Positions 22,404-44,618 of a stretch of 64,000 nucleotides of DNA are shown piece after piece. Source of the stretch: Candidatus Thalassarchaeum sp. (lineage in GTDB: Archaea > Thermoplasmatota > Poseidoniia > Poseidoniales > Thalassarchaeaceae). The stretch is from contig JAKURL010000002.1 in the NCBI GenBank assembly GCA_022449345.1, positions 36,302 through 100,301 on the forward strand, written 5' to 3'. Made by a program: the position numbers and the translations under genes. The stretch's first letter is position 1. Each line of letters starts with the position of its first letter. The notes beneath the pieces were generated by a model that searched no databases, was not told where the DNA came from, and saw only the letters and a list, made by a program, of their open reading frames with translations.

Positions 22404-23705
22404 CTACTCCTTACAAACGATGTACAGAGTATGACTGCCGCTTCCTCTTTCCAACTCTAGGTCGACTATGAATCCACGAGCCCCTTCAAACTCCTTCATT
22501 GCCTTGTCCAATCTGCGTTGAAGGGTCGGATGCAAGTCTGGGTCGAGGCTGCATCGAAGAGTCACTTTTCCCACTTCATTTCGAGCAGCCGCGGCCGCTG
22601 TTTGTTCGATAGTGTGTAGTTCAGGAGGAGTGAGTCTGTGTTGAACAATTTCACCACTGGCGATTACAAAGGCATCGATTTCATCATCTCTGGTTAGTGG
22701 ATCGGTGCTGATTAGCAGTGGTCTTCTACCATCTAGCCGTAGCCATGAATGGCCTGCACTTTTGGGAAGAGCTCTGTCTAGCCAAGCCTCGTGCAGGCCA
22801 GATTGAACCAGCGCAGGGTCAACGATTGTTAGGTATGCACCAAAAGGTGGCGGACTACTCATCGAAACCAATTCTGATTTGGCTACCCTGCCCTCTATCG
22901 TCGCCATGATGTTCTTTTTCCCCATTCTTACACATCGAGAGGGTTCTTTGGAGGAAAGAGAGCCAATCCAAACCGACAGCCGGTCAATCCTCCCTCCGCC
23001 TTGGCTAAGGTATTCCCAAGTCCTTGCGATTCCAGGGAAAGAAGTCTCGATTACCGCATCGACCAATGAGCGTTGTTCCTCATTAAGTCGAGGTGAAAGA
23101 TCGAGTAAAATTGCAGGTCCACGTGGTCCGGTTTCAAGGTGATTTGCCCAAGACTTCAGTAGTGGGGCAAGAGCAGGTTCCATTTCGTCGATTTCATGTC
23201 TCTGCGCATCTTTTGGACGGGCGGGGTCAAGGTGCAACATACCGATTGGTGGATGCGCCCTAGTTCCTGCCTCCCTGAGGCTATTCCAGTACGAAACGAT
23301 TGCATCCTCTGCATCTGTTCCATCACCAATCAGAACGCGATCCATGGTTCTCTGTAGATCTTCTTCCCCTCCTGAAATATGCATATTCGCGGCGCAGAGT
23401 AACCCCACATTGGGATCCACTTCTATCGCCAATCCCGGCCGCTTGAGTCTAGTGGTGAATGCAATGAGTTGTACACCACTCCCGGCCGCCGCATCAAGGA
23501 TTACTCCTGCTGGAAGGTCAGCGGCTTCAATCTGCTCTGCTCTAATTTGAGCAACAGACCACGGAGTGGACAATCTTCGCATATCCTCCGTCATGTGGAA
23601 TTTAGGTTCACCCTTCCTGGCTGATTTGGCCTTAGCAACCTTGGAAGCCCTCTTTACAATGTCAGAAGAGGGGTTCAGAGCGTAGTGGCTTGGGCTCTCA
23701 TTCAT
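22404..23705 (-). CDS. class I SAM-dependent methyltransferase; motif I resembles the RNA cap guanine-N2 (Tgs1-like) family
   Basis: VILDAAAGSGVQLIAFTTRLKRPGLAIEVDPN (DxFxGxGxxxIxFA...AI(D/E)xDP pattern). Confidence 0.45.
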   Translation of the reverse strand: MNESPSHYALNPSSDIVKRASKVAKAKSARKGEPKFHMTEDMRRLSTPWSVAQIRAEQIEAADLPAGVILDAAAGSGVQLIAFTTRLKRPGLAIEVDPNVGLLCAANMHISGGEEDLQRTMDRVLIGDGTDAEDAIVSYWNSLREAGTRAHPPIGMLHLDPARPKDAQRHEIDEMEPALAPLLKSWANHLETGPRGPAILLDLSPRLNEEQRSLVDAVIETSFPGIARTWEYLSQGGGRIDRLSVWIGSLSSKEPSRCVRMGKKNIMATIEGRVAKSELVSMSSPPPFGAYLTIVDPALVQSGLHEAWLDRALPKSAGHSWLRLDGRRPLLISTDPLTRDDEIDAFVIASGEIVQHRLTPPELHTIEQTAAAAARNEVGKVTLRCSLDPDLHPTLQRRLDKAMKEFEGARGFIVDLELERGSGSHTLYIVCKE

Positions 23706-23754: not shown

Positions 23755-24741
23755 TCATATGGTTGCTCTATCAACCTTCAACTCAAATCGCAACCAAGAC
23801 TCTTGCAGTTCGTGCCCGTCGCTATTTCCGTAGGCGATTGGGGGTGGTAAGAGAGTAACGTGAGTGGTTCCAGTATCTATACCGGGAATTAGTCCTCTAT
23901 CTCCATCGATGTCGAGTCCAATTGCTGACCATCCGAATCCCTGAATGAAATTGTCGTCATCACCCGCGGTGACGATTAGATCACCTTCGTCAAGAAGTTC
24001 ATCAGTGTCGGCATCCCATACCTTGTAATGGACCTCAAGAGTATCTCCATCACTTGCATGCAAATCTCTTGGATTAGAACCTTCGAAGATGTGCACGTCT
24101 AGAATAACTTTAGCCTCTGGAACACGTAGGTGGGAAGCCTGAATCTGGATATCGTGCTCGGTTACCGCATTATTCAGTTCAATCTCGACAATTACAGTTT
24201 CATTTACCCCAATTTCATTTAGGGTTAGATCTGTATCTCCTTCTGAGGCAAATACGACCTCTCCACCAGTTATTTCAAGAACAATATCTAGCGTTTGGTT
24301 ACCTCTATTGTAAACTGCAACACTGGCTCTGTCGTCATCTCCTTGATGCTCCCAATCACATCGCAATTCGCCAGGATAGAGGAAGACTTCGTCCTGTTCA
24401 GAGAGAACATCCGGCCAATCCCAGTCTCCTAATCTAGAGTCACAGGTGTCGAATAACAAGTCAACTTCCCAATACCATCGATCATTTTCATCCTTAAACA
24501 GGTCTTCGTCAGTCATGGAAAATGCATCCTCATTGACCTTTGTGAATACATATACGCTGTATCCAACAACGATTGTTGAAACGATTAGCAGGGCAGCGGT
24601 AGCTAAAGAGAGCAAAATTGCTGCCCGCGGAATCGCCATTTCGTTGATACCAAGCGGTACAGTGGGGTGCTCGACCTCATCGGGAGTATCTGAGATCCAA
24701 CTGCGGGACACGATATGCGACCATACCCCGTCAGTCATCAA
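23755..24741 (-). CDS. membrane-anchored FKBP-type peptidyl-prolyl cis-trans isomerase
   Basis: N-terminal TM (AAILLSLATAALLIVSTIVVGY); C-terminal FKBP domain (GDTLEVHYKVWDADTDELLDEGDL...PGIDTG...PPPIAYG). Confidence 0.7.
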   Translation of the reverse strand: MMTDGVWSHIVSRSWISDTPDEVEHPTVPLGINEMAIPRAAILLSLATAALLIVSTIVVGYSVYVFTKVNEDAFSMTDEDLFKDENDRWYWEVDLLFDTCDSRLGDWDWPDVLSEQDEVFLYPGELRCDWEHQGDDDRASVAVYNRGNQTLDIVLEITGGEVVFASEGDTDLTLNEIGVNETVIVEIELNNAVTEHDIQIQASHLRVPEAKVILDVHIFEGSNPRDLHASDGDTLEVHYKVWDADTDELLDEGDLIVTAGDDDNFIQGFGWSAIGLDIDGDRGLIPGIDTGTTHVTLLPPPIAYGNSDGHELQESWLRFELKVDRATI

Positions 24742-24756
24742 GGTTAGTGTCAGAAG

Positions 24757-27700
24757 TCAATCCTGTAGCAATGCTTCCTCGTTTCTTTGCCCCAGCCAAG
24801 TAACTAGAGCTAATTCAGCGCCTACTACCGCTAGCAATAGGAACAATCCTCCCGCATTAAGTGAAGACGCAGCACCCAGCATTAGCAGTGATGCCCCCAC
24901 TCCTGCCAGAAGATTTCCAAATCCCCAAACACGTAAAATTCGTCGCAAATCAAGAATTCCAACGACCCAAAGGGTCGTTGATATTGAAAACAAGGCAATC
25001 GGATAAAGTAACCATTCATTGACCAATGTTAGGCCAGCTAACATCAGAATGTGGCAATCGATTGCCGCCATCATCGTCCAATGACCATTTCGCATTGGAA
25101 CGGATGCGGCAACTAATCCGAGCATACCAAATCCACCTGCTAGAATTATCCAGTCTAGGTAGTCGAGAATTTGTGGAATTAGGGTGCTCATTGAGTATAG
25201 AACAAGCGGCACGCAAAGTATAGCCAACCCGACACCTTCGACTTGCCGATGTTTGCGTCCAGCATATATTGCATTAGCAACAGCAAGAACTCCAGCAGGG
25301 CCCCAAGACACCATGACGTAAGCCAATGCTCGTAGGCCTCTCCCCGAACTTCCCAAATGTGTCTCTCGACCCACGCTGGATCTTCGTGCATCAATCATTG
25401 CATCGATGATGATTGTGAAGATTAACAAGGCCTCAAGTATTAACCAAGGAATTTGCCATAGGATGAGGTCTCCATCGAAAGGATCTACCGTGAATGGGAA
25501 TGGAAGAGATTCAACCAACAAGGCTCCAATCAACCTTCCCAGAACTAGAGGTAGAACAAACCAATCAATTGCAATCGGAATGCGGTCGAGTAGGTTGTCC
25601 CTTTGGTAGAGAGAAATAATTACGAATTGTAGAATTAGAATTGTCACCACTGCCAAGTCAAGTAATTCTTTGTTACTCGCCCCAGGGCCTAGATGCCCAG
25701 AAATCAAGGCTAGAATCAATCCGATAATCGCGTAGGCAATTGGCATCTCGATTCCCATCACGGTTGGTAAATCGAGGTCTAGTTGTTTGGTTCGCAGTCT
25801 TGCTATTGCAACCAGCACAGTGGCGAAGATTCCCGCAGTAAGAAGAATGAATGGAGAAGAAGAGAAAATTAGTCCCCAAACGATTACAGTGCCAAGGACC
25901 AGAATTAGAACCAGTAGAACGATTGTTGGCCTATGAGATATGTCTGTAGTGTACAACTCAGAGTCATCATCTGTTGCAGTGAGATGCCTTTTCTTCTTGC
26001 GTTTTTGTTCTAATTCGATTCTTTTTGGGTCGAAAGTCGCCAATTCCCCAGTACCTAGGCTTAGTTTTCCGACCTTATCCTGACCAGCCATGGCCAAGAG
26101 TTGGTCTCTTTTGGTCATAGTTCTCAATTCGGCTCTAATTTCTCCTCGTGCGACAAGCCATAGGGTGCTGAGTATGAACAAACCGATACCCGCCATAGCC
26201 GAGGTTTCATTTTCCAATTGTATCGAAAGCCCGATTGTAATCACAAGCAGCCAGAGAGCTGCCGCCGCTGGTTTGAGCAATTTTTCCATCTTCTCCGCGC
26301 GCGGGAGATAGAAAGCCATCACTAGACCAGTGCAGGCGACTGAAGTCATTGACAGATCTAACTCTGGGATTGAGTCCGTCGATTCGAGAATACGGCCTGG
26401 ATCCTTGGAGTAAAGGGCGATGATTAGTGGTAGGGACATCAGAGCCATACCGTTGGTGAAAACCGGCTCATCCTCAGGGTTGCCACGATAGAGTATTGAA
26501 GCGGTGGCGACAAGCATCAGAATTATCCACATTTCATCTAATCCATGCTTCCAACCGAGCGTTGCCACGCTTACTGCAATTATTCCCATAAGCGCAACCG
26601 GTCCACCCAGTCTTCTTCCAACAAATTCGGCTCCAAGGTGGGATAACGATACAGCCCAAACCACCGCTAACAGAGTGATAGCGGTAAATCCACCCGCATG
26701 GGCCATGACGATGATTGTGACCATTGGTAGCCACAATCCCATGGACCACAATTGCAGCACCCCAGAATCACGAATAGATGCTGAAATTTCTGTTATTCCA
26801 AGGAATCCAGATGCGAGATTTACACCTATTTCTCCCAATTGCAAATTGACAATTAGCATCAGTACTACCGAGACGATTAGGTAGGCTGCGAACGGAGTTG
26901 ATGCGAGCTCTATGACATTCCCAGGATCAGTCCAACCATTGCTAATCATCACGGTTCTGAATGATTCGACAACAAACTCCTGTAGCAATACCCAAGTCCA
27001 TGGTAGCAATACTGTAGCACCTGCCAAAGAAGGTGCTTGCCGTATAATCGCAAGGATTGCAGTACCTATGTGTAGGGTGGTTAGAAGTGCAAGGAGTGCA
27101 ATTCCGCCATCGCCTCCGTCCGCCTCTGCTTCTGCAGGAATTAGAATTACCAATAGTAAGAGAACACCTACCGAGCCGACCCATAATACACGGTCAGTAA
27201 CGCGATTCTGATCTCGTAATATAACAAATCCAGTCAGAATCGAGGCAAAAATTGTGAAGGTCTCGTAACGGTCGAAAGGAGATAACGATTCAGTAAATTC
27301 GCCCATAATCAGCAATAGAGAAAACAGTGCTGCTCCGGATAGCAAAGGAATCGCTACTCTGAGCTTTTCAACCCCCCTAACGACTAGGTATGACCCACCA
27401 AATGCCCCCGCGAGGAAGGTGACCATTCCCAAAGCGTATCCAGAGTCCTCTCGACTCGAGGCTACTGCCATTAGTGCCCCAACCATACCTAAGGAAATCG
27501 ATACCCCCCAAAGCCCAGGTTGTCCGAGGCCGGCGACCTTGAATCCCTTTGAGAACCAATTGTCCTCACGCGCGAAGCGCGCGGCCATACTGGCATTGAT
27601 TCCAGATACAATCATCAACAGTAGGAAGAGAATTAGCGGCGTATCTAGAGGTTCAATAATCAATGAACCTGCGGTAAAACCACTAGTAATCGCATGCATA

Positions 27701-28551
27701 CCTATCCAGAGATTGGAGGCAGCGACTCCGAGCGCTGCGAGGTTTCCAGAGCCTCGATGCAGCGCTAGACCATGAAGAAGTAAAGTAGCGATTAGAATCA
27801 TCACTGCGACTCCAATCTCTCCACCGATTGAGCCAGCAGTGGAGCCGATTGCCAAGAGAACTAGAGTCGCTTGGGCGGCAATCGCGTCGTGGTCGTGACG
27901 ATAGGCAACGAATACGTTGAGTGCAACCAGTAAAAGCAACAGAATCGCCAATACTTCTACTGATATCGGAAGGAAACCACCTAATTCCCAGTGGTTTAAC
28001 TCGATTGCAAGACCATAGAGAACTTTCATCGAAATTATGACCCAAGAGACTCCAAGCAAATGCAGATTCTTGTCAGGAACCCATCGCTCACCAAGGGTGA
28101 ATCCGACAGTGGCGAGAACTAGAAGTAACGCTAAGGATACAGCGGGAGGGAATGTTGTACCAGCAACCACACTCAGGGCACTGAAGACGAATATCATCGA
28201 TACCATCAGTGACCAATTGACTCGACGCTCTCCCTCCTTTGCCATCGAAGTCACTATGTCATCCTCTGGAGCACTCAGCACACTCCCATCAGCGGCTATT
28301 GAGCCCGGTTCCTTTCCAGTAGTTTCTTTGAATGGATCGAAGACATCACCTAGGGCATCATCATCTTGAATATTCTCTTCAGCCTCGGACGGTGTGATGC
28401 CGGAATCAACCTCTTCTTTGCCAGCATCACCTAAACCGAGATCACCAATGTCGATGTTTGCACCAATTTTGAATCGACGTTCGCGAATCACGCTGTCGTC
28501 CTTCTCATCGTTCACGCGCCTACGAGGAACGGCATTCGGCGATAACCGCAT
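24757..28551 (-). CDS. very large polytopic integral membrane protein (1264 aa, more than 30 predicted TM segments), function unknown
   Basis: Continuous ORF; hydrophobic helices throughout; hydrophilic acidic N-terminal region of about 110 aa. Confidence 0.7.
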   Translation of the reverse strand: MRLSPNAVPRRRVNDEKDDSVIRERRFKIGANIDIGDLGLGDAGKEEVDSGITPSEAEENIQDDDALGDVFDPFKETTGKEPGSIAADGSVLSAPEDDIVTSMAKEGERRVNWSLMVSMIFVFSALSVVAGTTFPPAVSLALLLVLATVGFTLGERWVPDKNLHLLGVSWVIISMKVLYGLAIELNHWELGGFLPISVEVLAILLLLLVALNVFVAYRHDHDAIAAQATLVLLAIGSTAGSIGGEIGVAVMILIATLLLHGLALHRGSGNLAALGVAASNLWIGMHAITSGFTAGSLIIEPLDTPLILFLLLMIVSGINASMAARFAREDNWFSKGFKVAGLGQPGLWGVSISLGMVGALMAVASSREDSGYALGMVTFLAGAFGGSYLVVRGVEKLRVAIPLLSGAALFSLLLIMGEFTESLSPFDRYETFTIFASILTGFVILRDQNRVTDRVLWVGSVGVLLLLVILIPAEAEADGGDGGIALLALLTTLHIGTAILAIIRQAPSLAGATVLLPWTWVLLQEFVVESFRTVMISNGWTDPGNVIELASTPFAAYLIVSVVLMLIVNLQLGEIGVNLASGFLGITEISASIRDSGVLQLWSMGLWLPMVTIIVMAHAGGFTAITLLAVVWAVSLSHLGAEFVGRRLGGPVALMGIIAVSVATLGWKHGLDEMWIILMLVATASILYRGNPEDEPVFTNGMALMSLPLIIALYSKDPGRILESTDSIPELDLSMTSVACTGLVMAFYLPRAEKMEKLLKPAAAALWLLVITIGLSIQLENETSAMAGIGLFILSTLWLVARGEIRAELRTMTKRDQLLAMAGQDKVGKLSLGTGELATFDPKRIELEQKRKKKRHLTATDDDSELYTTDISHRPTIVLLVLILVLGTVIVWGLIFSSSPFILLTAGIFATVLVAIARLRTKQLDLDLPTVMGIEMPIAYAIIGLILALISGHLGPGASNKELLDLAVVTILILQFVIISLYQRDNLLDRIPIAIDWFVLPLVLGRLIGALLVESLPFPFTVDPFDGDLILWQIPWLILEALLIFTIIIDAMIDARRSSVGRETHLGSSGRGLRALAYVMVSWGPAGVLAVANAIYAGRKHRQVEGVGLAILCVPLVLYSMSTLIPQILDYLDWIILAGGFGMLGLVAASVPMRNGHWTMMAAIDCHILMLAGLTLVNEWLLYPIALFSISTTLWVVGILDLRRILRVWGFGNLLAGVGASLLMLGAASSLNAGGLFLLLAVVGAELALVTWLGQRNEEALLQD

Positions 28552-28626
28552 CCCCGTCGAGCACAGTTGGATTTCAATATCCAGCAGAATTTCTCTCGGC
28601 GGTTATCCGCAATGGTTGAAAGGTGA

Positions 28627-30261
28627 ATGTCTGAGCCGGACCGCATGGAGAGCACCTCGGGCTCGTCCACAACAGCCGTTTCGGCAACCCCTATGTCTTC
28701 TCATGGACTGAAACCTAGCGGCTCAGTGCATTGGAATCTAAGCTCCAGTGAATTGCACCAGCGGGCAGTAGAGCGTGGAGAAGCAGAAATGAGCGCCCAT
28801 GGTGTACTACTAGCCACAACCGGAGACCGCACTGGGCGCTCGCCAAATGACCGATTCATCGTCGATGAATCCGGATATGCTGACCATGTTTGGTGGGGTA
28901 AAGTGAATCTCCCAACAAGCCGCTGGGTCTTCGATAATCTTCTCAAGAAAGTGCAATCGCACCTCGATGCCGCAGACCAACTCTTCGTCAAAGACGCGCA
29001 TTGCGGTGCAGATCCAAATTACGCCATGCCAGTACGTCTAGTTACCGAGAAGGCTTGGCATGCTGCGTTCTTCCACAATATGTTCGTTCGTAGCGACCCA
29101 TCTGAATTACACGACCATGTTCCAGAATACACGATTCTTCACGCCCCCGACTTCCTAGCCGACCCAGAGTCTGATGGAGTAAACTCAGATGCATTCGTAA
29201 TCCTCGCTTTGGACAGAGGTTTGGTAATCATCGGTGGAACCCACTACGCAGGCGAGATAAAGAAGGCGATTTTCACTATCATGAATCACATTCTGCCTGA
29301 AAGAGGAATCATGCCAATGCATTGCTCTGCCAATACGGATGAAAAAGAATCGGCTCTTTTCTTTGGACTATCTGGGACCGGTAAGACTACTCTTTCAGCG
29401 GACCCTCACAGGGCTTTGGTCGGAGATGACGAACATGGATGGTCCGATGATGGTGTGTTCAATTTCGAAGGCGGATGTTATGCCAAACTAATCGGTTTGT
29501 CTCAGGAGGACGAACCGGAAATTTATGCTACAACTCGTATGCCTGGAACAATATTGGAGAATGTCATTCTCGATTCAAGTGGAGTTCCAGATTTCGATGA
29601 TGGAACTTTGACCCAAAACACCCGAGCTTCCTACCCTATTGAAGCGATAGAAAACAGGACTGAAGATTCCACAGCCGGTCATCCAAAGAATGTGGTTTTC
29701 CTTACCTGTGATGCCTTCGGTGTTCTACCTCCACTGTCCCGACTAACTCCTGACCAAGCCGCATACCACTTCATGTCAGGTTACACTGCGAAAGTTGCCG
29801 GAACTGAGGTCGGTGTTATCGAGCCTCAGGCAACATTCTCAACTTGTTTTGGAGCACCATTCATGCCTCGACATCCGAGCATTTACGCTGACTTGTTATC
29901 CAAGAAAATCAGCGAGCATAATGCCAATTGTTGGCTGATTAACACCGGCTGGGTTGCAGGCGGCTATGGCGAGTCCAACCGAATCAAAATCCGCTGGACT
30001 CGCGCCCTCCTAAACGCAGCACTGCACGGTGATTTAGAAAATGTAGTATTCGTCGAAGACGAACGCTTTGGCTTTGCAGTACCGACTGAGTGTGAAGGTG
30101 TTCCTAGCAATATTCTACAGCCTCGTGAAACTTGGTCAGACAAGAATAGATACGACAATGTTGCAAACCTTCTAGCACAGATGTTCACAGAAAATTTCCA
30201 GCAGTATGAAGATGGTTGTAGCGAGGAAGTTTTAGCATCCTCCCCCAAGGTTCTGTTTTGA
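28627..30261 (+). CDS. pckA: phosphoenolpyruvate carboxykinase (ATP)
   Basis: FFGLSGTGKTTLS kinase-1a motif; HYAGEIKK. Confidence 0.9.
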   Translation: MSEPDRMESTSGSSTTAVSATPMSSHGLKPSGSVHWNLSSSELHQRAVERGEAEMSAHGVLLATTGDRTGRSPNDRFIVDESGYADHVWWGKVNLPTSRWVFDNLLKKVQSHLDAADQLFVKDAHCGADPNYAMPVRLVTEKAWHAAFFHNMFVRSDPSELHDHVPEYTILHAPDFLADPESDGVNSDAFVILALDRGLVIIGGTHYAGEIKKAIFTIMNHILPERGIMPMHCSANTDEKESALFFGLSGTGKTTLSADPHRALVGDDEHGWSDDGVFNFEGGCYAKLIGLSQEDEPEIYATTRMPGTILENVILDSSGVPDFDDGTLTQNTRASYPIEAIENRTEDSTAGHPKNVVFLTCDAFGVLPPLSRLTPDQAAYHFMSGYTAKVAGTEVGVIEPQATFSTCFGAPFMPRHPSIYADLLSKKISEHNANCWLINTGWVAGGYGESNRIKIRWTRALLNAALHGDLENVVFVEDERFGFAVPTECEGVPSNILQPRETWSDKNRYDNVANLLAQMFTENFQQYEDGCSEEVLASSPKVLF

Positions 30262-36029: not shown

Positions 36030-39000
36030 ATGTCTATACCTCCTCAACTGCCGAGCAAGCGCAGGTATGCCTTGCTTCTTGCTGCATTGATGATTTTGTT
36101 GCCTTGGTCGGCATATTCTAGTGTAAATGAGTTAGATTCTGAGTTAGAAACTCGCGAGGTTTCGCAGGCGGCATGGGGTGCTTCCGGAAGCAACGACACC
36201 GGATGGATAGATTTGATCGCGACCGGAGCAGACCCTGTTAACGGAAGTTATGCGTACAGTGACCTATTCCTACCGTTTGCTCCGGGCGCTGAAATTTCCA
36301 ATTTAACCTTCGAGATAGCCGTCAACGGCTCGGCTGGTTATTGGGCTAACGAGCCACAACTGACTCTAATGGATACACAAACTCCAATCCTTGATTGGAG
36401 AGGTTATGGTGACCTTGGTCGGCAGGATGAGATGGAGAATAATCCGCCGACCGTACTCAATGGTACACTTAGCACTCATTTGAGACCCAACTCAATCTCA
36501 GATGCTTCTTGGGAACTGCCGGCCGGAGTGACACTCACAGATATGGTAATCGAGGCATTAAGGCCTGCCGATCCAAAGATATCCTACTCAGCAGTAGACA
36601 TAGAGATTCACGACACAGCGGTAAATCCAGTAGATGGCCGATTGTATCTATTGCTAGACGATGATCTTCTTCATCTAGACGCAAGGGCTCACAAGCAAAT
36701 TGTCGATATCGAAACAGGAATCATGGGAAGATCTCTAGCAATCGACGATGATTCTGGAATACTATTGATTGGAACAGAAGATGGCTCAGTGCTTTCACGC
36801 AGTTTGTCGAATTCTGCAATTCTGCCAGACCTGCGTACTAGTGATGGTTCTCAAAACGCCGGAATCTATGCCATAACAGTAGATGATCATGGAACAATTT
36901 GGGCGGCAGGAAATTGTACCATTTACTACAAGCCGATGGGGAATGTCGACTGGAGTGATTACGATTATTGCCAGTCGTTTAACATAGAGACTCCATCTGA
37001 CATTCTCATTATTGGCGATAGTGTCTACCTTGCAACCACTAGTTCTGGAGTACACATCATCAACTACATCACCGCTTCTTCTTCAGGCAGTGTTTCAGTC
37101 TCAATAGACTCTCAAATAGATTGGAGTACTCAGAATTTCCTTTCCTCAAACCTGATTACAGACCTCGAGATAGTTGGTAATAATCTTCTAATCGCGACCT
37201 ATGACACTGGAATCAATCGTAGAGACCTTACCTCACAATCTTGGATAGCCACTTGGTCAACAAATAACTGGTTGGCATCCAATCAGATTCACGGCTTGTC
37301 GCTTACCCCCGGCTGGCTTCATATCCTTGCTGGTACGACCATTCACGCCTATGATACCAATTCACTAATCTTCCAATCACAAAATCAACTTACTTCCCTC
37401 GGTTTGTATGGAAATGGTGCTATGGCCATTCCATGGCCTTCACATTCGGTTAGAGGCCCAATCACCTCCACAGCTCTGTTTAGCGATGGTTCTGGCACTT
37501 TGGGAATGCAGATTGGTGAGAACCCAGCAGGCGCTCTTACTCTTGTCAGTAGCCCATCTGTCGAAGGCATGGCGGTAGTCTCACGCATCAATGATGGTGC
37601 GTCGGGTGAGATTTGGGTTGCTGGGGGTAAAATAATCGATCGATTTGACGAATCAGATCGGGCTTGGGAGATTCCAATCGACATTAGTGACTACGTCAAC
37701 AATCCAGGTCAGATCGTTGCGATTGAACAGGATGGCAACGAGAAGGTTTGGATTGGAACGACTAATGCCGGAGTTCTGAGGCTAGAAAATACCGATGGAA
37801 CCTACATCGGAACTGTTTCAGGACTAAGTTCAACTCATGTTACTTCCTTATCTTACGACGATATCAACGGTTACTTGGTAGTAGGGCATAGCCAATCTGG
37901 AATTTCCATAATCGATACCAACCAGATGACATTAGTAGATACGATAACCACTTCCGATGGTTTAGATTCTGACTTCATAAATTCAGTTACAACTCGTTTT
38001 GGAATCGCCTACATCGCTACTCCGGATAAGGGAGTAATGCGTATCGAATTATCGACTTCGACAATCATCGGCTCGTGGCAATCACTCGGTGCCGATAATT
38101 TGGATGCAACACCGGTTGCAGTCGATGGTGACGTTGTTTACATCGGACTCTATGAGTTCGGTATTCTAGTCGTCGATAGACTAACTGGAGATATCTCAGA
38201 CCATTGGACACAGGATACCAACACTCTACCTGACGACGACGTTCTATCATTGGAAATGGACGATTTCGGTGGTCTATTAGTCGGCTCAGAGGGCTCCTTC
38301 TCCCGTTACGATGGCAGTACTTGGACCACTATGACAAGCAGTGGCCAATGGTGGAATCAACCTAGTGTATTCTACGATGTCACCAGCGACGGAGATGGGC
38401 TGTACGCTGGAACTAACAGAGGTGCTTGCAAGTGGGATTGGCAGTATCAATTCCAAGATTGTGTAAGCTCTGGTGATGGCCTCGAGAGTCGTTTCGTGTA
38501 TACCATAGAGATGCTAGCACCAAACCGTGCTTACACGGGTGGAAACTCCGGAGCTGGTATCGTCAATATGGATAATTTCTCAGTAATTGAGACTTGGACC
38601 GCCGGCGACAACACACAGCGCTCGCGTACGGTCAAGGTTGACGATATTCTCTACCTTGGATTCGAGAACACCGGCATAGCCCGATATGATTTGACAAATA
38701 ATCAGTGGTTGACTACTTGGGACGGAGATCAAGGATACATCAACGACGATGATGTAACCGCCTTAGTTCCAGGGGAAACATACGGAACAATTTGGGCAGG
38801 CGGAGATTTTGGTCTGACATTAATCGATGTCGTGAATGACGTAGTATTGATTGCTTGGGATAGAGGTTCGAATACCAACGGCCCTACACTTTCTAATTCA
38901 ATTCCTGCAGATATAGAAATCTACGGAGATGTATTGCATTACTCCACACAACGCTCAACCGGTTGGTGGGGCGGTGGCTCTGACAGCATCTATCGCATCA

Positions 39001-42000
39001 ATCTGACAACAAATTCTAGCATGACCACGCTTGAGGTTAACGATCAAACAGGTTGGACTGGAGTGGTGAACGGAATTGGAGTTGTAAACGACCAATTGTG
39101 GATTGGCATTAGACCTTCTCAGACTTGGAACGATGGAGATGGAACAATTGCTCGCTGGAATATGACCAACGAATCTTGGGAGGAAGATCTGGCAACAATC
39201 GGAAATGTTCTACGCGTTAATGCTCGATTCCTAGGTGATTGTTTCCCATTGAACACAAGTTCTTGTGAACTTTGGGTGGCGTATGGGAATTACATTCTAA
39301 GACGATTCAATGCAGATACAATGATGCTTCTAGATGAGTGGGTCGACGTTGACGGTCCAATTCGAGGAATGACCGAATTCGAAGGAGAATACCTATTCGC
39401 TAGCATGAATGGTATTCTTCGATGGAATCCAGTAAACGAAACTTGGCTAGATTCTTGGACTCCTGGAGACGGCTTACCATCGAGTTCTGAGGAAGAGTTC
39501 TACTCGATGGCGGTTATCGAAAACGATCTTTGGTTGGGTACAATGGAGTCCAGTGGCTGGAACTCAAACGCTCAGGTACTGAGAAAGAACGGAACAGACG
39601 GGAATTGGACATCTTGGGATTTAGGAACAGGAGACATCCCTGACGGATATCCAGCCGACATCAAGTTGTGTGATGATATTGTCCACATTGCTATCGGCGC
39701 TCGATTTTTCTGGGGCAATCAAGGTGGTGTTGCCCGTTATGACTTCGCAGACCATGATTCAGATTCCTTGACCAATGAATGGATTAGTGCGATGACTTCT
39801 GGTAGCTCGGGTTTATCCAATAATGATCCAAGGGCCGTGGCTTGCGATGAGAGCAACGACATTTTGTACATTGCATACGATACTGAGGGTGTAGGCATCG
39901 ATCGCTATAACTACAATACGGACACATACCTTTCCACCCTTACTTCAGTCGATGGAATCAGCGAGGACAGAATATTCCCTGGTGGATTGTTACATGACAA
40001 CAACGTCCTCTTGGCCGCTCACCAATTCGATAACCATGGAGGAATTTCTCGTTTGATTACTTCCGGAACAGCAACCGCAAATGGCCAAATCCTAGACCCC
40101 GGAATGGACGGCTGTTCTATCGAAAGAGCTCCTTCGTCTACAGGTCAAGTAGCCTACGCTGTGGGGCGCTCAGGTCAGACAACAGGACTGAACAGAGTCG
40201 ATAGGCTAGACAGTTCAGGATTAATCGCAAGTGGCTATGATGAACTCACTGGACTAACCAGTGGCCGCGTGATGGAAATAATCTCCAATGACACACATGT
40301 ATGGGTTACCTCATCCTTGGACTCTAACTCCTACTACGGGTCCTCGATTCTTCAGGGAGAAATTCTCTCGAATGGCTCTGTTAGATGGGAATTTGGTTAC
40401 AATTTCCGAGAGGATATAGTCAATGAAATGATGTTGGATGGTGAGACTCTATGGGTCACCACGGCAGGCCGAGGCCTGAAGGCAATTGACTTGAAACAGC
40501 GCCGTGTAACCTCCACTCCGCCGGCACTACACGCACAGATGGATGGAATGGTGTTGGAGAACGGTACGATGTATGTTGGACTAATGGGTAATCAAGGTTC
40601 AGCGGCCGGATTCCAGATGTTCAATACCCAAAATGCTCAGTGGGGTCATGGCAGTCTAATCGCCGGATTACCGAGCAACCTTGTGCGAGATTTCATCATT
40701 TACGGTGACCACATCATGATCGCTACCCATGGTGGAATTGGAATGTACAATACCACCCGTGACGATTGGGATAATCCGATAACCACAATCGATGGATTAC
40801 CTTCACCGATAATCACCCATTTACACGCCCTCAACACAACCATCCAGGGCGGTGGAAAGGTTCTGGCTGGCGGTGCAGCAGGTATGACGGTCCTGCATCA
40901 ACACAACCTTTCGGTCCTCAACACATTAGGATTCAATGATGGACTGATGGGTAATACCGTGAGTGGAATAGTAGAGGCAGGACCGAGTTCCCGCGTCGTT
41001 CAAAACGCCGATGGAACGAACACCACTCTTTACCACGACGCGTCGATATTCATCTCACACAATGGACAAGGGCCAACTCGACCCGGTGTAGCGGCCTGGG
41101 ATTTGGCCACCGATATGGCAAATGGTACTTACAATATCGACATGGTTCCAAGTAATGACATTAGGGCGATTGTTGCTGATGACTGGGGAGTTCACATCGC
41201 TACCGACGTCGCTCCTTTGGTACATTGGAACGGTAGCATGATGCAGATGGAAACTGGAGTTAGTACCAGTTCCTTACTTTCTTGGCCTCCATACGAGATG
41301 CACAGTGACGGCCAGCACATCGTGGTGATGAGTCCTCGTGGTCTCGACGTTGTAGATGTAGACGGAAGACACAATGTGGTGACTAGCCGAGTGATTACTG
41401 GTCTGCAAGGTGGATATGTCGACTTCAGCGGTTTCTATGCTGTTGGGAATGACGGTCTTCATGTCTACAAACCAGTAATTAGTCTGCAAGAGAATTCACG
41501 TGAGCATCAACGCCGTGCAGATCCGCTAACAGTATTGTATAGTGGCCGAAATTGGGATATTACCAATACAACTCATCCAGGAATGTCAACGGTTTTGGTA
41601 ACTCCTGATAATCCGATTGAGATTCCTGAGACCTCTAATGTTGCTGCCCCTGGTAAACTTCCGATGCACGTCGGAACAATGACGATGATGGCACCTCAAC
41701 GAGGTGCCTGGGTGTGGGCTCAGTCTACGTCGTTGAATTATACTGGAAGTTGGGATTTGGCTACCTCTAATGGAGGAATTCAACAGGCCTTCCAGTCAGC
41801 CATTTCTGCAGTAGGGCCTGGTACCTCTTCTGCAATTCTTCATGTCCAAATGCAGTCACCTCAGGATGGAGCCATTCAGGTTAGGTTGACTTATGATTGG
41901 GAGCGAATCGAGGCTCCAACTGTCATTACCAAACTTGAGGATAGACCCAATGATGGTGGAGGCGTAATCGAAGCCTCTTGGCTACCTGCAGAGGATGCTG

Positions 42001-44618
42001 CTTGGCATGCCTATAGATTGTATGTATGGGATTCGTCGGTTGACCCACTATGGGAACCAACTCAGGAAGACCTAGATTCATTCTCTACCTACATGAGATC
42101 CAACTTCTGGTCTCGCACAAATGCCACCATTACCCGAGCGGATAATGATGGACTAACCGAGCAATTGCGAGATGACCGTCAATACCGAGCAGCGGTGGTT
42201 ATCGAATATGCAGATGGCTCACTAGGTGTACCGATGGCATATCCTCACAATGTAACTCCGACTGATGAGATTCCAGCAGCCCCTGCTTGGATGACAGCTA
42301 ATCCAGTATCGGGAGGAGCAGCGGGTACCATCTTCCTAGAATGGGCCGCCTGTACAGAACTAGATCCGGATAGAGTAAGAATTTGGGCGGTCCAGCAGGA
42401 GATTACCAGTGCAGTAGGACTTTCTGACCCATTCGAATTCCATTGGAGTACCGGAAATACAACCGCCCTGCAGCTAGAAGGCGGAGTTGCTTACTGGTTT
42501 GCTGCAGTTTGTGTTGATGAGGCTGGACAGTCATCAATCGAGAACGCCACAATAATCGGACCTGTTGTTACTGCGGGTGGTTTGGATGATGGAATTCCAC
42601 CTGTTCCTATCACTGGAACAACAGCCATCGACGTTCCTAACGACGAAGGTGGTAGAATCAACGTCACTTGGGATGCAAATACCGAGGAGGACTGTACCTA
42701 CTACACGGTCTACACCTTGCCAGCCTCTGGCTGGCAACCCCCTTCAACGGTCGATGGTTGGCCAGTTGCAGGATATACAGACAGTTGTGAAACGACTTCG
42801 ATTATCATCGACTCTATAGGAGAAAGTAGTCTAATCGATGGAACGGTCTACTGGATAGGAGTAGTCGCTTACGATGATTGGGGCAATGGGGATGTCGACA
42901 ATGTATTGGTTGTCGACGCCACTCCTGAGGCAGATTTCGATGGTGAAGCGATACCACCAGACCGCGTAACTGGCCTCGAAGCTTGGGATTACCCAGATGA
43001 TGATGGAACGGCCATAGATATCCGTTGGAATCGCTCAGCCGCCGATGATTTCTCATTCTATACAGTCTGGGTATCCGAATACCCGTTGAATAATGTAACC
43101 GAGATATGGGAATTGTGTAGTGAAAATCCATCCTCGTGTGGTCTCGTTATCATTAACCAGCGTCAGTTTGGGGCAAATTTCCAGTTAGAATACACCGCGG
43201 AGAGAGCCCTTTACGGTAGTTCGGCAGATACCTTAGAGGCGACTCCAATCCACTCGATGATTCCGCTCTACGTGACAATCACCATTCACGATATCAGTGG
43301 AAATGTGCACCTAAGCGATCTTTCGGAACATATGGTCTTGGTCACTCCAATGGATAACCGTGGAGATATTTCTCCGCCAGACCGCCTAGAAGCGCCGGTA
43401 CTGAGAGATAGGCCCAACGATGCCGGAAATGCGATGTTCGTAGAATTCCAACAAAGTGATGCTTCTGACATTGCGGAATATTGGATTTACGCGGTAATTG
43501 ACACTCCAGTTCTATTGGAGAGAACCGATGACTTACACCCCGCGATGGTTATCGACAGGGAACAAGGTCTACCAGTTCTGCTAACCGAGTTCTCTGCTCA
43601 TGGAGATGACGAGGCGACACCACTGGTGCCAAACCGCCGAATTTACGTGGCGGTAGTCGCCGTTGATTCATCTGGCAATGCTTGGATGGACAACCTCGCT
43701 AGCACATGGATCGAGTTGTCCGACGAACTCTCCGCAGATCCATGTCCAGAGTGCCCAGATGTTAGTGGGCTACGGGCTAGTTGGAATGCTGCGGGTTCAC
43801 TGATTGAGGTAAATTGGGATAATGTCGAAGACCCGAAGTATGCAAGCTACTACGCCTTTGTCAGCCTTGACACATTCGATGATACACGTAACGCAACTTT
43901 GGTCAAGTCTGGAATGAGAGACACTATTTTGATTCTCAACGAATTCAACGGCGAGATGATTGACCGTGAAGAGAGATATTGGATTGAGATTGTAACTTGG
44001 AACGGCCAAGTCCACACATATCACGCCGACCCGATTGAGGTTTCACCTTGGGAGGAATCTTCCTTTGGTACAACCCAACCAGGAGATGATTCAGCAGGAG
44101 AGTCTTGGGTTGAGAGAATACTTGCAGGGGAGATGAACATGGTAATCCTCGCGCTATCGGTAGTAATGCTGCTAATCGGCGCACTGATGTTCATCAGACC
44201 AAGAGGAGAAGCGGCTCCAGAACCTTGGGAGATGGGCGCGCTCGAGGTCGAATTGGAAGAACAACTAGAGCGCGAGGCGGCAGGTCTCAGCGACGACGAA
44301 GAATTCGGCGTTGATGATTTGGAGATTGATGGTGGCTTGGTAGCCAATGCTCGGCGCAAAGACGGAGATGCTCCTGATTCAAGCGAGAGCGATTATACAG
44401 AGACAGCGGCGAGTGCTGGAGTACCTGTAGAAGAAGACCTCGGCCCAACACCATCTGCTGAAAGCGAGGTCATCGACGAATTACTCGGTGCCGAGGAAGA
44501 AGAATTAGATCTCGGCGATCTAGATGATATGGCCGATGACCTAAACTTGGATGAAAAGCCTGATGATGATTCCGAAGACGAGGATATTGACACCTCCTTC
44601 CTCGACGAGATGCTCTGA
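36030..44618 (+). CDS. giant secreted surface protein (2862 aa): signal peptide, many beta-propeller (Reg_prop/YVTN-like) repeats, FN3-like modules, a C-terminal TM anchor and an acidic cytoplasmic tail
   Basis: N-terminal signal; a repeating G..vW.GT..G.. pattern; C-terminal MVILALSVVMLLIGALMFI followed by a D/E-rich tail. Confidence 0.85.
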   Translation: MSIPPQLPSKRRYALLLAALMILLPWSAYSSVNELDSELETREVSQAAWGASGSNDTGWIDLIATGADPVNGSYAYSDLFLPFAPGAEISNLTFEIAVNGSAGYWANEPQLTLMDTQTPILDWRGYGDLGRQDEMENNPPTVLNGTLSTHLRPNSISDASWELPAGVTLTDMVIEALRPADPKISYSAVDIEIHDTAVNPVDGRLYLLLDDDLLHLDARAHKQIVDIETGIMGRSLAIDDDSGILLIGTEDGSVLSRSLSNSAILPDLRTSDGSQNAGIYAITVDDHGTIWAAGNCTIYYKPMGNVDWSDYDYCQSFNIETPSDILIIGDSVYLATTSSGVHIINYITASSSGSVSVSIDSQIDWSTQNFLSSNLITDLEIVGNNLLIATYDTGINRRDLTSQSWIATWSTNNWLASNQIHGLSLTPGWLHILAGTTIHAYDTNSLIFQSQNQLTSLGLYGNGAMAIPWPSHSVRGPITSTALFSDGSGTLGMQIGENPAGALTLVSSPSVEGMAVVSRINDGASGEIWVAGGKIIDRFDESDRAWEIPIDISDYVNNPGQIVAIEQDGNEKVWIGTTNAGVLRLENTDGTYIGTVSGLSSTHVTSLSYDDINGYLVVGHSQSGISIIDTNQMTLVDTITTSDGLDSDFINSVTTRFGIAYIATPDKGVMRIELSTSTIIGSWQSLGADNLDATPVAVDGDVVYIGLYEFGILVVDRLTGDISDHWTQDTNTLPDDDVLSLEMDDFGGLLVGSEGSFSRYDGSTWTTMTSSGQWWNQPSVFYDVTSDGDGLYAGTNRGACKWDWQYQFQDCVSSGDGLESRFVYTIEMLAPNRAYTGGNSGAGIVNMDNFSVIETWTAGDNTQRSRTVKVDDILYLGFENTGIARYDLTNNQWLTTWDGDQGYINDDDVTALVPGETYGTIWAGGDFGLTLIDVVNDVVLIAWDRGSNTNGPTLSNSIPADIEIYGDVLHYSTQRSTGWWGGGSDSIYRINLTTNSSMTTLEVNDQTGWTGVVNGIGVVNDQLWIGIRPSQTWNDGDGTIARWNMTNESWEEDLATIGNVLRVNARFLGDCFPLNTSSCELWVAYGNYILRRFNADTMMLLDEWVDVDGPIRGMTEFEGEYLFASMNGILRWNPVNETWLDSWTPGDGLPSSSEEEFYSMAVIENDLWLGTMESSGWNSNAQVLRKNGTDGNWTSWDLGTGDIPDGYPADIKLCDDIVHIAIGARFFWGNQGGVARYDFADHDSDSLTNEWISAMTSGSSGLSNNDPRAVACDESNDILYIAYDTEGVGIDRYNYNTDTYLSTLTSVDGISEDRIFPGGLLHDNNVLLAAHQFDNHGGISRLITSGTATANGQILDPGMDGCSIERAPSSTGQVAYAVGRSGQTTGLNRVDRLDSSGLIASGYDELTGLTSGRVMEIISNDTHVWVTSSLDSNSYYGSSILQGEILSNGSVRWEFGYNFREDIVNEMMLDGETLWVTTAGRGLKAIDLKQRRVTSTPPALHAQMDGMVLENGTMYVGLMGNQGSAAGFQMFNTQNAQWGHGSLIAGLPSNLVRDFIIYGDHIMIATHGGIGMYNTTRDDWDNPITTIDGLPSPIITHLHALNTTIQGGGKVLAGGAAGMTVLHQHNLSVLNTLGFNDGLMGNTVSGIVEAGPSSRVVQNADGTNTTLYHDASIFISHNGQGPTRPGVAAWDLATDMANGTYNIDMVPSNDIRAIVADDWGVHIATDVAPLVHWNGSMMQMETGVSTSSLLSWPPYEMHSDGQHIVVMSPRGLDVVDVDGRHNVVTSRVITGLQGGYVDFSGFYAVGNDGLHVYKPVISLQENSREHQRRADPLTVLYSGRNWDITNTTHPGMSTVLVTPDNPIEIPETSNVAAPGKLPMHVGTMTMMAPQRGAWVWAQSTSLNYTGSWDLATSNGGIQQAFQSAISAVGPGTSSAILHVQMQSPQDGAIQVRLTYDWERIEAPTVITKLEDRPNDGGGVIEASWLPAEDAAWHAYRLYVWDSSVDPLWEPTQEDLDSFSTYMRSNFWSRTNATITRADNDGLTEQLRDDRQYRAAVVIEYADGSLGVPMAYPHNVTPTDEIPAAPAWMTANPVSGGAAGTIFLEWAACTELDPDRVRIWAVQQEITSAVGLSDPFEFHWSTGNTTALQLEGGVAYWFAAVCVDEAGQSSIENATIIGPVVTAGGLDDGIPPVPITGTTAIDVPNDEGGRINVTWDANTEEDCTYYTVYTLPASGWQPPSTVDGWPVAGYTDSCETTSIIIDSIGESSLIDGTVYWIGVVAYDDWGNGDVDNVLVVDATPEADFDGEAIPPDRVTGLEAWDYPDDDGTAIDIRWNRSAADDFSFYTVWVSEYPLNNVTEIWELCSENPSSCGLVIINQRQFGANFQLEYTAERALYGSSADTLEATPIHSMIPLYVTITIHDISGNVHLSDLSEHMVLVTPMDNRGDISPPDRLEAPVLRDRPNDAGNAMFVEFQQSDASDIAEYWIYAVIDTPVLLERTDDLHPAMVIDREQGLPVLLTEFSAHGDDEATPLVPNRRIYVAVVAVDSSGNAWMDNLASTWIELSDELSADPCPECPDVSGLRASWNAAGSLIEVNWDNVEDPKYASYYAFVSLDTFDDTRNATLVKSGMRDTILILNEFNGEMIDREERYWIEIVTWNGQVHTYHADPIEVSPWEESSFGTTQPGDDSAGESWVERILAGEMNMVILALSVVMLLIGALMFIRPRGEAAPEPWEMGALEVELEEQLEREAAGLSDDEEFGVDDLEIDGGLVANARRKDGDAPDSSESDYTETAASAGVPVEEDLGPTPSAESEVIDELLGAEEEELDLGDLDDMADDLNLDEKPDDDSEDEDIDTSFLDEML

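Follow-up and report, generated by a model that had tools for sequence, protein, structure and literature searches.

Does the very large membrane protein encoded at this locus work together with the small, membrane-anchored protein encoded just downstream of it, and what does the large protein do? The first-pass annotation of this DNA had proposed that the pair belongs to a membrane biogenesis or secretion complex. The two genes, called BIG and FK here, lie in the window (the whole stretch of DNA that was analyzed, 64,000 nucleotides long), whose host belongs to Thalassarchaeaceae/MGIIb. In the surface ocean, Marine Group II (MGII) ranks among the most abundant archaeal groups; to our knowledge it has no cultured member, and almost nothing is known of its cell envelope and membrane biology. 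The features of the locus, with the evidence used to delimit them, are the following.

22404–23705, minus strand: conserved 433-aa protein between FK and the S13 operon, syntenic in all loci
23755–24711, minus strand: FK coding sequence including stop, read from the GTG at 24711; 318-aa single-pass membrane protein
23776–24057, minus strand: FK aa 219–312, divergent FKBP-like domain (PF00254 and PDB profile matches)
24067–24489, minus strand: FK aa 75–215, acidic middle domain, presumably Ig-like and rich in beta strands (alignment A4)
24565–24621, minus strand: FK transmembrane anchor, aa 31–49 of the 318-aa protein, or aa 41–59 of the open reading frame (Kyte-Doolittle)
24631–24711, minus strand: FK aa 1–27, acidic N-terminal motif (M)xRSWISDTPDEVEHPxVPLGxNEM (alignment A4)
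24712–24756, minus strand: BIG–FK spacer, 45 nt (DNA alignment of 10 loci)
24757–28551, minus strand: BIG coding sequence including stop, ATG start, 1264 aa (open reading frame and translation)
25927–26148, minus strand: BIG aa 802–875, basic hydrophilic linker (KRKKKR) that includes a long helix (charge count, DSSP)
27352–28104, minus strand: BIG aa 150–400, most conserved core, about TM3–TM10 (column conservation)
28210–28551, minus strand: BIG aa 1–114, acidic hydrophilic N-terminal region (charge count, motif conservation)
28552–28626, no strand: divergent BIG/PEPCK intergenic region, 75 nt (gene coordinates)
28627–30261, plus strand: PEPCK

The 3.8-kb reading frame for a 1264-aa polytopic protein was confirmed at 24757–28551 on the minus strand, and BIG has 439 database relatives, the full-length ones mostly alike in length; family members measure 1200–1490 aa, and most of the full-length matches listed fall at ~1220–1280 aa. 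The Pfam field was empty for all of the best 120 of these 439 homologs. An exhaustive HMM search with BIG recovered only 202 relatives among 1.84 billion representatives, and the gene is carried by 173 GTDB species. By title, 80 of the BIG loci come from Poseidoniales, MGII, or unclassified Thermoplasmatota or Euryarchaeota archaea, and within Marine Group II the protein is highly conserved. The family that BIG founds is almost confined to Poseidoniales (Marine Group II).

Searches for more distant kin gave consistently negative results. A Pfam and NCBIfam scan of BIG matched zero families, even at E ≤ 10; STT3, flippase, and transporter families were among those without a match, in agreement with the earlier remark that the protein lacks transporter and STT3 motifs. 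Seven distant homologs likewise matched no Pfam or NCBIfam family (E ≤ 0.1), the BIG profile found zero sequences in the PDB at E ≤ 10, and the protein shows no recognizable catalytic motif from a known enzyme class. The first-pass annotation had proposed a profile search against DUF families and a search for internal repeats: the former assigned BIG to no known family, and hhalign, run on the whole protein against itself and segment against segment, found no repeats. A literature search returned nothing specific describing either the BIG protein or membrane-anchored FKBPs of MGII, only the general statement that 199 families are Poseidoniales-specific. BIG is an orphan of narrow distribution: it belongs to no recognizable family, neither Pfam, NCBIfam, nor the PDB contains a relative of it, and it is at present a conserved hypothetical protein.

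The more than 30 hydrophobic helices reported for BIG number ~37. A Kyte-Doolittle scan yielded 40 overlapping hydrophobic peaks, and DSSP analysis of an AlphaFold model assigned 45 helices, ~37 of which are hydrophobic and measure ≥17 aa. As had been noted, the first 114 aa are acidic and hydrophilic (27 D/E vs 15 K/R); they contain the motifs DDxxIRERxFK, DEALGDVFDPF, and PGxIxxDGxVxxPExDxVT, which are kept in alignments A1 and A3; no signal peptide is visible at the N-terminus, and this region appears to lie on the cytoplasmic side. A second hydrophilic stretch, the 75-aa loop that forms the basic linker (16 K/R vs 13 D/E), divides the protein into ~24 N-terminal and ~13–14 C-terminal helices. 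The model places a helix at 782–831 in this region, which also appears to be cytoplasmic, and matches to BIG split at the linker because its length differs among lineages. The charges of the loops can be read as switching consistently between basic and acidic from an N-in to a C-in orientation, and model and charge pattern together suggest that both termini are cytoplasmic. The helices would pack as up-and-down hairpins, and in the model there is almost no extramembrane mass and no external loop longer than ~20 residues. This topology is uncertain at one point: helix 222–266, 45 residues long and unbroken in the model, would have to pass through the membrane two times.

Conservation is concentrated in one part of the protein. 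Mean column conservation is 0.66–0.73 in aa 150–400, vs 0.38–0.6 elsewhere. Across 46 sequences, with identity down to 19%, the invariant or near-invariant residues of this core include the polar K176, N212, D222, Q227, H260, R266, N270, W282, and H286, as well as N331-W332, W348, S351, S387-Y388, and R392; E184 and R218 are conserved, short of invariant. In the AlphaFold model built with the same number of sequences (pLDDT 84.2, pTM 0.64; a weaker run with seven sequences, pLDDT 63, was set aside), Lys176 and His286 are predicted inside helices, and Glu184 and His260 within helices or at their ends. Given a positive-inside topology, the charged and polar residues of the core would sit at the cytoplasmic membrane interface. 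Two fold searches with the model returned only generic or designed helical repeats and solenoids, including a designed 16-helix transmembrane pore; GT-C, MOP, Piezo, and known transporter structures were not among the fold matches listed.

FK had been described as an FKBP-type peptidyl-prolyl isomerase encoded 16 nt downstream of BIG, and both parts of this description need adjustment. The mechanically called reading frame reaches a TTG at 24741, and only with that start does it begin 15 nt past the BIG stop codon. Since many relatives have in-frame stops at codons 5–9 of this long frame, and since amino-acid conservation starts at the V/M codon 11, the true start is most likely the GTG at 24711, which makes the protein 318 aa long and widens the gap to 45 nt; many FK database entries are 316–319 aa in length. 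There are 749 FK homologs, and none of the best 120 has a Pfam domain. Within the spacer, the conserved motif CTAACCTTGATGAC (24734–24747) stops 22 nt short of the FK start. In the DNA alignment of 10 loci the motif and its spacing from the start codon are constant, the spacer itself being variable in length. A conserved motif at a fixed distance suggests that FK is probably driven by its own, putative promoter.

The anchor and the acidity ascribed to FK are both borne out: its sole hydrophobic segment is the transmembrane anchor (Kyte-Doolittle peak 2.59), and past it the protein carries 62 D/E vs 15 K/R. Ahead of the anchor, W5, D8, T9, E12, E14, H15, P16, P19, G21, N23, and M25 are invariant in alignment A4, and the motif that they form is predicted to be cytoplasmic; the invariant P28-R29 directly before the helix would agree with the positive-inside rule. 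FK is probably a type-II-anchored protein that faces outward. Its middle domain has two invariant cysteines (C90 and C118, alignment A4) and only weak matches, to designed Ig domains and to DUF6385; judged from its sequence, it is a probable Ig-like, extracellular domain.

As for the FKBP assignment, the C-terminal ~95 aa align with PF00254 over profile positions 5–92 of 94 at 14.3 bits (E = 0.05), below the Pfam gathering threshold of 21.1 bits. PF00254 was matched at E ≤ 1 by 12 of 18 FK relatives, the highest scores (18.9 bits at locus L084 and 16.1 bits at locus L211) also remaining below 21.1. PDB profile searches with full-length FK and with its C-terminal domain put FKBPs on top (E 0.017–0.4), the best matches of the FKBP-like domain being FKBPs at E 0.017–0.08. 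Neither local alignment with human FKBP12, judged against shuffled sequences, nor hhalign comparison of the FK family profile with human FKBP12 was significant. At the level of single residues, the apparent equivalents of FKBP12 Y26, D37, I56, Y82, and F99 are invariant or nearly so in FK (alignments A4 and A5; HMMER alignment with a fungal FKBP12), and two pocket positions are replaced (F36 by L, W59 by L). The C-terminal domain is best described as a divergent FKBP-like domain with a score below the Pfam threshold.

Whether the two genes form a pair was addressed through gene order. The collinear block in which PEPCK diverges from BIG, FK, the 433-aa protein, and S13-S4-S11-RpoD is kept in 78 of 78 informative GTDB loci, and the BIG–FK order persists in deep lineages in which BIG is only 29–39% identical. 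A metagenome scan based on the conserved FK motif gave at least 120 FK loci, and among those listed, 91 extend 1.5 kb or more upstream of FK. BIG precedes FK in 90 of these 91 (median gap 78 nt; ≤200 nt in 87 of 90), and FK was thus seen almost exclusively beside BIG. The sole exception is a 3.3-kb contig (L125) with an amidohydrolase gene upstream of FK. To this extent the expectation of a conserved pair was upheld; it failed in eight other deep lineages, in which BIG adjoins PEPCK and no FK is found downstream within 5–8 kb; the lineages of this second type are probably Poseidoniaceae/MGIIa. Further, wherever the pair is kept, the flank from the 433-aa protein to RpoD is kept as well. The conserved unit is the whole block, so the adjacency of BIG and FK can be plain collinearity, and as a two-gene module the pair is not kept across the whole range of BIG beyond that collinearity. 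Because many lineages have BIG without FK, FK is not an obligate subunit; it is a lineage-specific companion of BIG, not an obligate partner.

Other genes occasionally intervene. An MscS-like gene is inserted between BIG and FK in five GTDB loci, from a few close relatives, and three metagenome loci have an insertion matching the ~1.2-kb size of this insert; at L084 a rhomboid-like gene occupies the same place. The divergent arrangement of BIG and PEPCK was seen in almost every context examined (the outlier is P0328), with a small gene between the two in two loci (L082/L083 and L087). Also recurrent near BIG are a phosphogluco/phosphomannomutase and a hexapeptide-repeat protein, in which no nucleotidyltransferase domain was detected. 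PEPCK, the mutase, and the hexapeptide protein hint at sugar or envelope-precursor metabolism, or they may reflect inherited gene order only. The 433-aa protein has no Pfam, NCBIfam, or PDB match. Elsewhere in the window, the 2862-aa reading frame reported nearby is present at 36030–44618 on the plus strand, and locus L211 has a giant reading frame of ~2800 aa at the corresponding relative position.

Our preferred reading, to which we assign a probability of only about 0.3, casts BIG as a new kind of enzyme or translocase embedded in the membrane, its polar site turned toward the cytoplasm, and FK as an accessory or a collinear neighbor. The functional unit would be the conserved N-terminal module (aa 150–400), whose conserved Arg, His, Asp, Asn, Gln, Ser, and Tyr residues would form the site facing the cytoplasm, and the other ~25 helices would serve as scaffold. 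At the inner leaflet, BIG would act on an amphipathic substrate that carries phosphate, perhaps an envelope precursor linked to a lipid or activated by a nucleotide. In Thalassarchaeaceae-type lineages, FK, encoded just downstream, would be a lineage-specific accessory or a mere collinear neighbor. Conservation and topology are the only grounds from which we infer this mechanism.

It is less probable that BIG and FK form one complex, a membrane platform with a dedicated outward-facing prolyl isomerase or chaperone that would help envelope proteins, for example the giant surface proteins from neighboring genes, to fold, insert, or be secreted. The regularity with which FK directly follows BIG (78 of 78 informative GTDB loci, and 90 of the 91 informative metagenome loci listed, with gaps mostly ≤200 nt), even where BIG is only 29–39% identical, is what such a complex would predict, and the two proteins are complementary in build: BIG has no extracellular domain or long external loops, whereas FK is acidic, anchored, and nearly all extracellular, probably with its two invariant cysteines and FKBP-like domain on the outside. 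The very conserved, predicted-cytoplasmic N-terminal motif of FK could dock on a partner, and a giant reading frame (~2800 aa) occupies the equivalent position at L211. As FK is almost never found away from BIG and the architectures are complementary, a physical partnership in FK-bearing lineages is possible. However, eight deep lineages carry BIG with no FK within 5–8 kb, the conserved unit extends to the 433-aa protein and S13-S4-S11-RpoD, unrelated genes intervene between BIG and FK, FK probably has its own promoter, and its FKBP assignment is sub-threshold. Nothing in the analysis links BIG or FK to secretion or membrane biogenesis, and HMM and fold searches revealed no similarity of BIG to Sec, YidC/Oxa1, archaeosortase, OST, or other secretion components.

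Two further readings concern BIG by itself. That BIG is a structural or mechanical membrane solenoid, an in-plane array of helical hairpins comparable in concept to the many-helix blades of Piezo channels, shaping or stiffening the membrane or sensing tension, seems doubtful to us: both fold searches gave helical-repeat or solenoid geometries only, there is almost no extramembrane mass, and in five genomes an MscS-type channel gene stands right after BIG, but that insertion is limited to a few close relatives, BIG lacks sequence repeats, unlike the repeated 4-helix units of Piezo, and its conservation sits in one module with invariant charged and polar residues, a focus that one would sooner expect of catalysis or transport than of scaffolding. 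We consider still more improbable an ion or solute transporter of new fold, for example a cation/proton exchanger substituting for the Mrp antiporter, whose families reportedly went undetected in Poseidoniales (PMC9258230); the conserved Lys176, Glu184, His260, and His286, within or at the ends of helices, would suit such a role, but Proton_antipo_M and all other transporter families in Pfam failed to match, and BIG has no inverted or internal repeat. An equally long shot, in our estimate, is a membrane machine of an undescribed type, a single-chain membrane solenoid of ~37 helices, that either folds or anchors giant surface proteins together with FK in Thalassarchaeaceae, or senses tension or curvature.

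The value of these results at present is a clear definition of the BIG family, its limits, and its testable features. Because the protein is found in 173 GTDB species, at a fixed position beside PEPCK, keeps its polar residues down to 19% identity, and finds no kin in Pfam, NCBIfam, or the PDB, it is a well-delimited, concrete target for structural or heterologous study of what sets MGII cells apart. If the polar core does belong to an inner-leaflet enzyme or translocase, it could mark a lineage-specific step in the making of lipids or the envelope. Should BIG and FK interact, they would be the first known case in archaea of a membrane platform equipped with an extracytoplasmic prolyl isomerase of its own.

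Set beside known systems, the likeness of BIG to designed helical repeats and alpha-solenoids (TPR and HEAT proteins; 8g9k THR2, 6u1s TMHC8_R, SKI3) is geometric only, with 4–12% identity, 150–300 of 1165 residues aligned, and TM-scores of 0.1–0.2; these proteins are soluble or artificial, and no homology is implied. The match to EccD of ESX/type VII secretion (7b9f_X; 8% identity over a fifth of BIG) ranks below many designed repeats, carries no sequence signal, and is probably generic; no other type VII secretion genes lie near BIG. Piezo, with about 37–38 transmembrane helices and little extramembrane mass in its helical array, is eukaryotic and trimeric and has a cap and pore module. BIG resembles it in its very many helices and sparse extramembrane mass, but has no sequence repeats, and Piezo is absent from the fold matches listed.

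Several enzyme and transporter classes were considered and rejected. STT3/AglB (GT-C) proteins combine a PF02516 match with the motifs WWDxG and DxD and a sizeable extracytoplasmic domain at the C-terminus, a description that BIG does not fit; for the MOP flippases Wzx and MurJ, whose fold has 12–14 helices with internal symmetry, there was no HMM match, no listed fold match, and no repeats. MFS, RND/MMPL, and Mrp/complex-I antiporter-like proteins gave no HMM match, no repeats, and no listed fold match, and exosortase/archaeosortase, MBOAT, and MraY-type enzymes had neither HMM nor fold support. Many GT-C and MOP structures are present in the PDB. BIG differs from both groups in lacking an extracytoplasmic domain and in having its conserved polar motifs on the predicted cytoplasmic side, and resembles them in being large and polytopic, with sugar-phosphate metabolism genes as neighbors. 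FK, for its part, departs from FKBPs in an insertion (DRGLIPGxDTG) ahead of the last strands and in the fusion of the domain to an N-terminal cytoplasmic motif, a transmembrane anchor, and an Ig-like domain; it has conserved residues at the apparent equivalents of FKBP12 Y26 (VHY), D37 (LD), I56, Y82 (PPxIAYG), and F99 (LRFEL), and like the extracytoplasmic FkpA and Mip, it is predicted to face outward.

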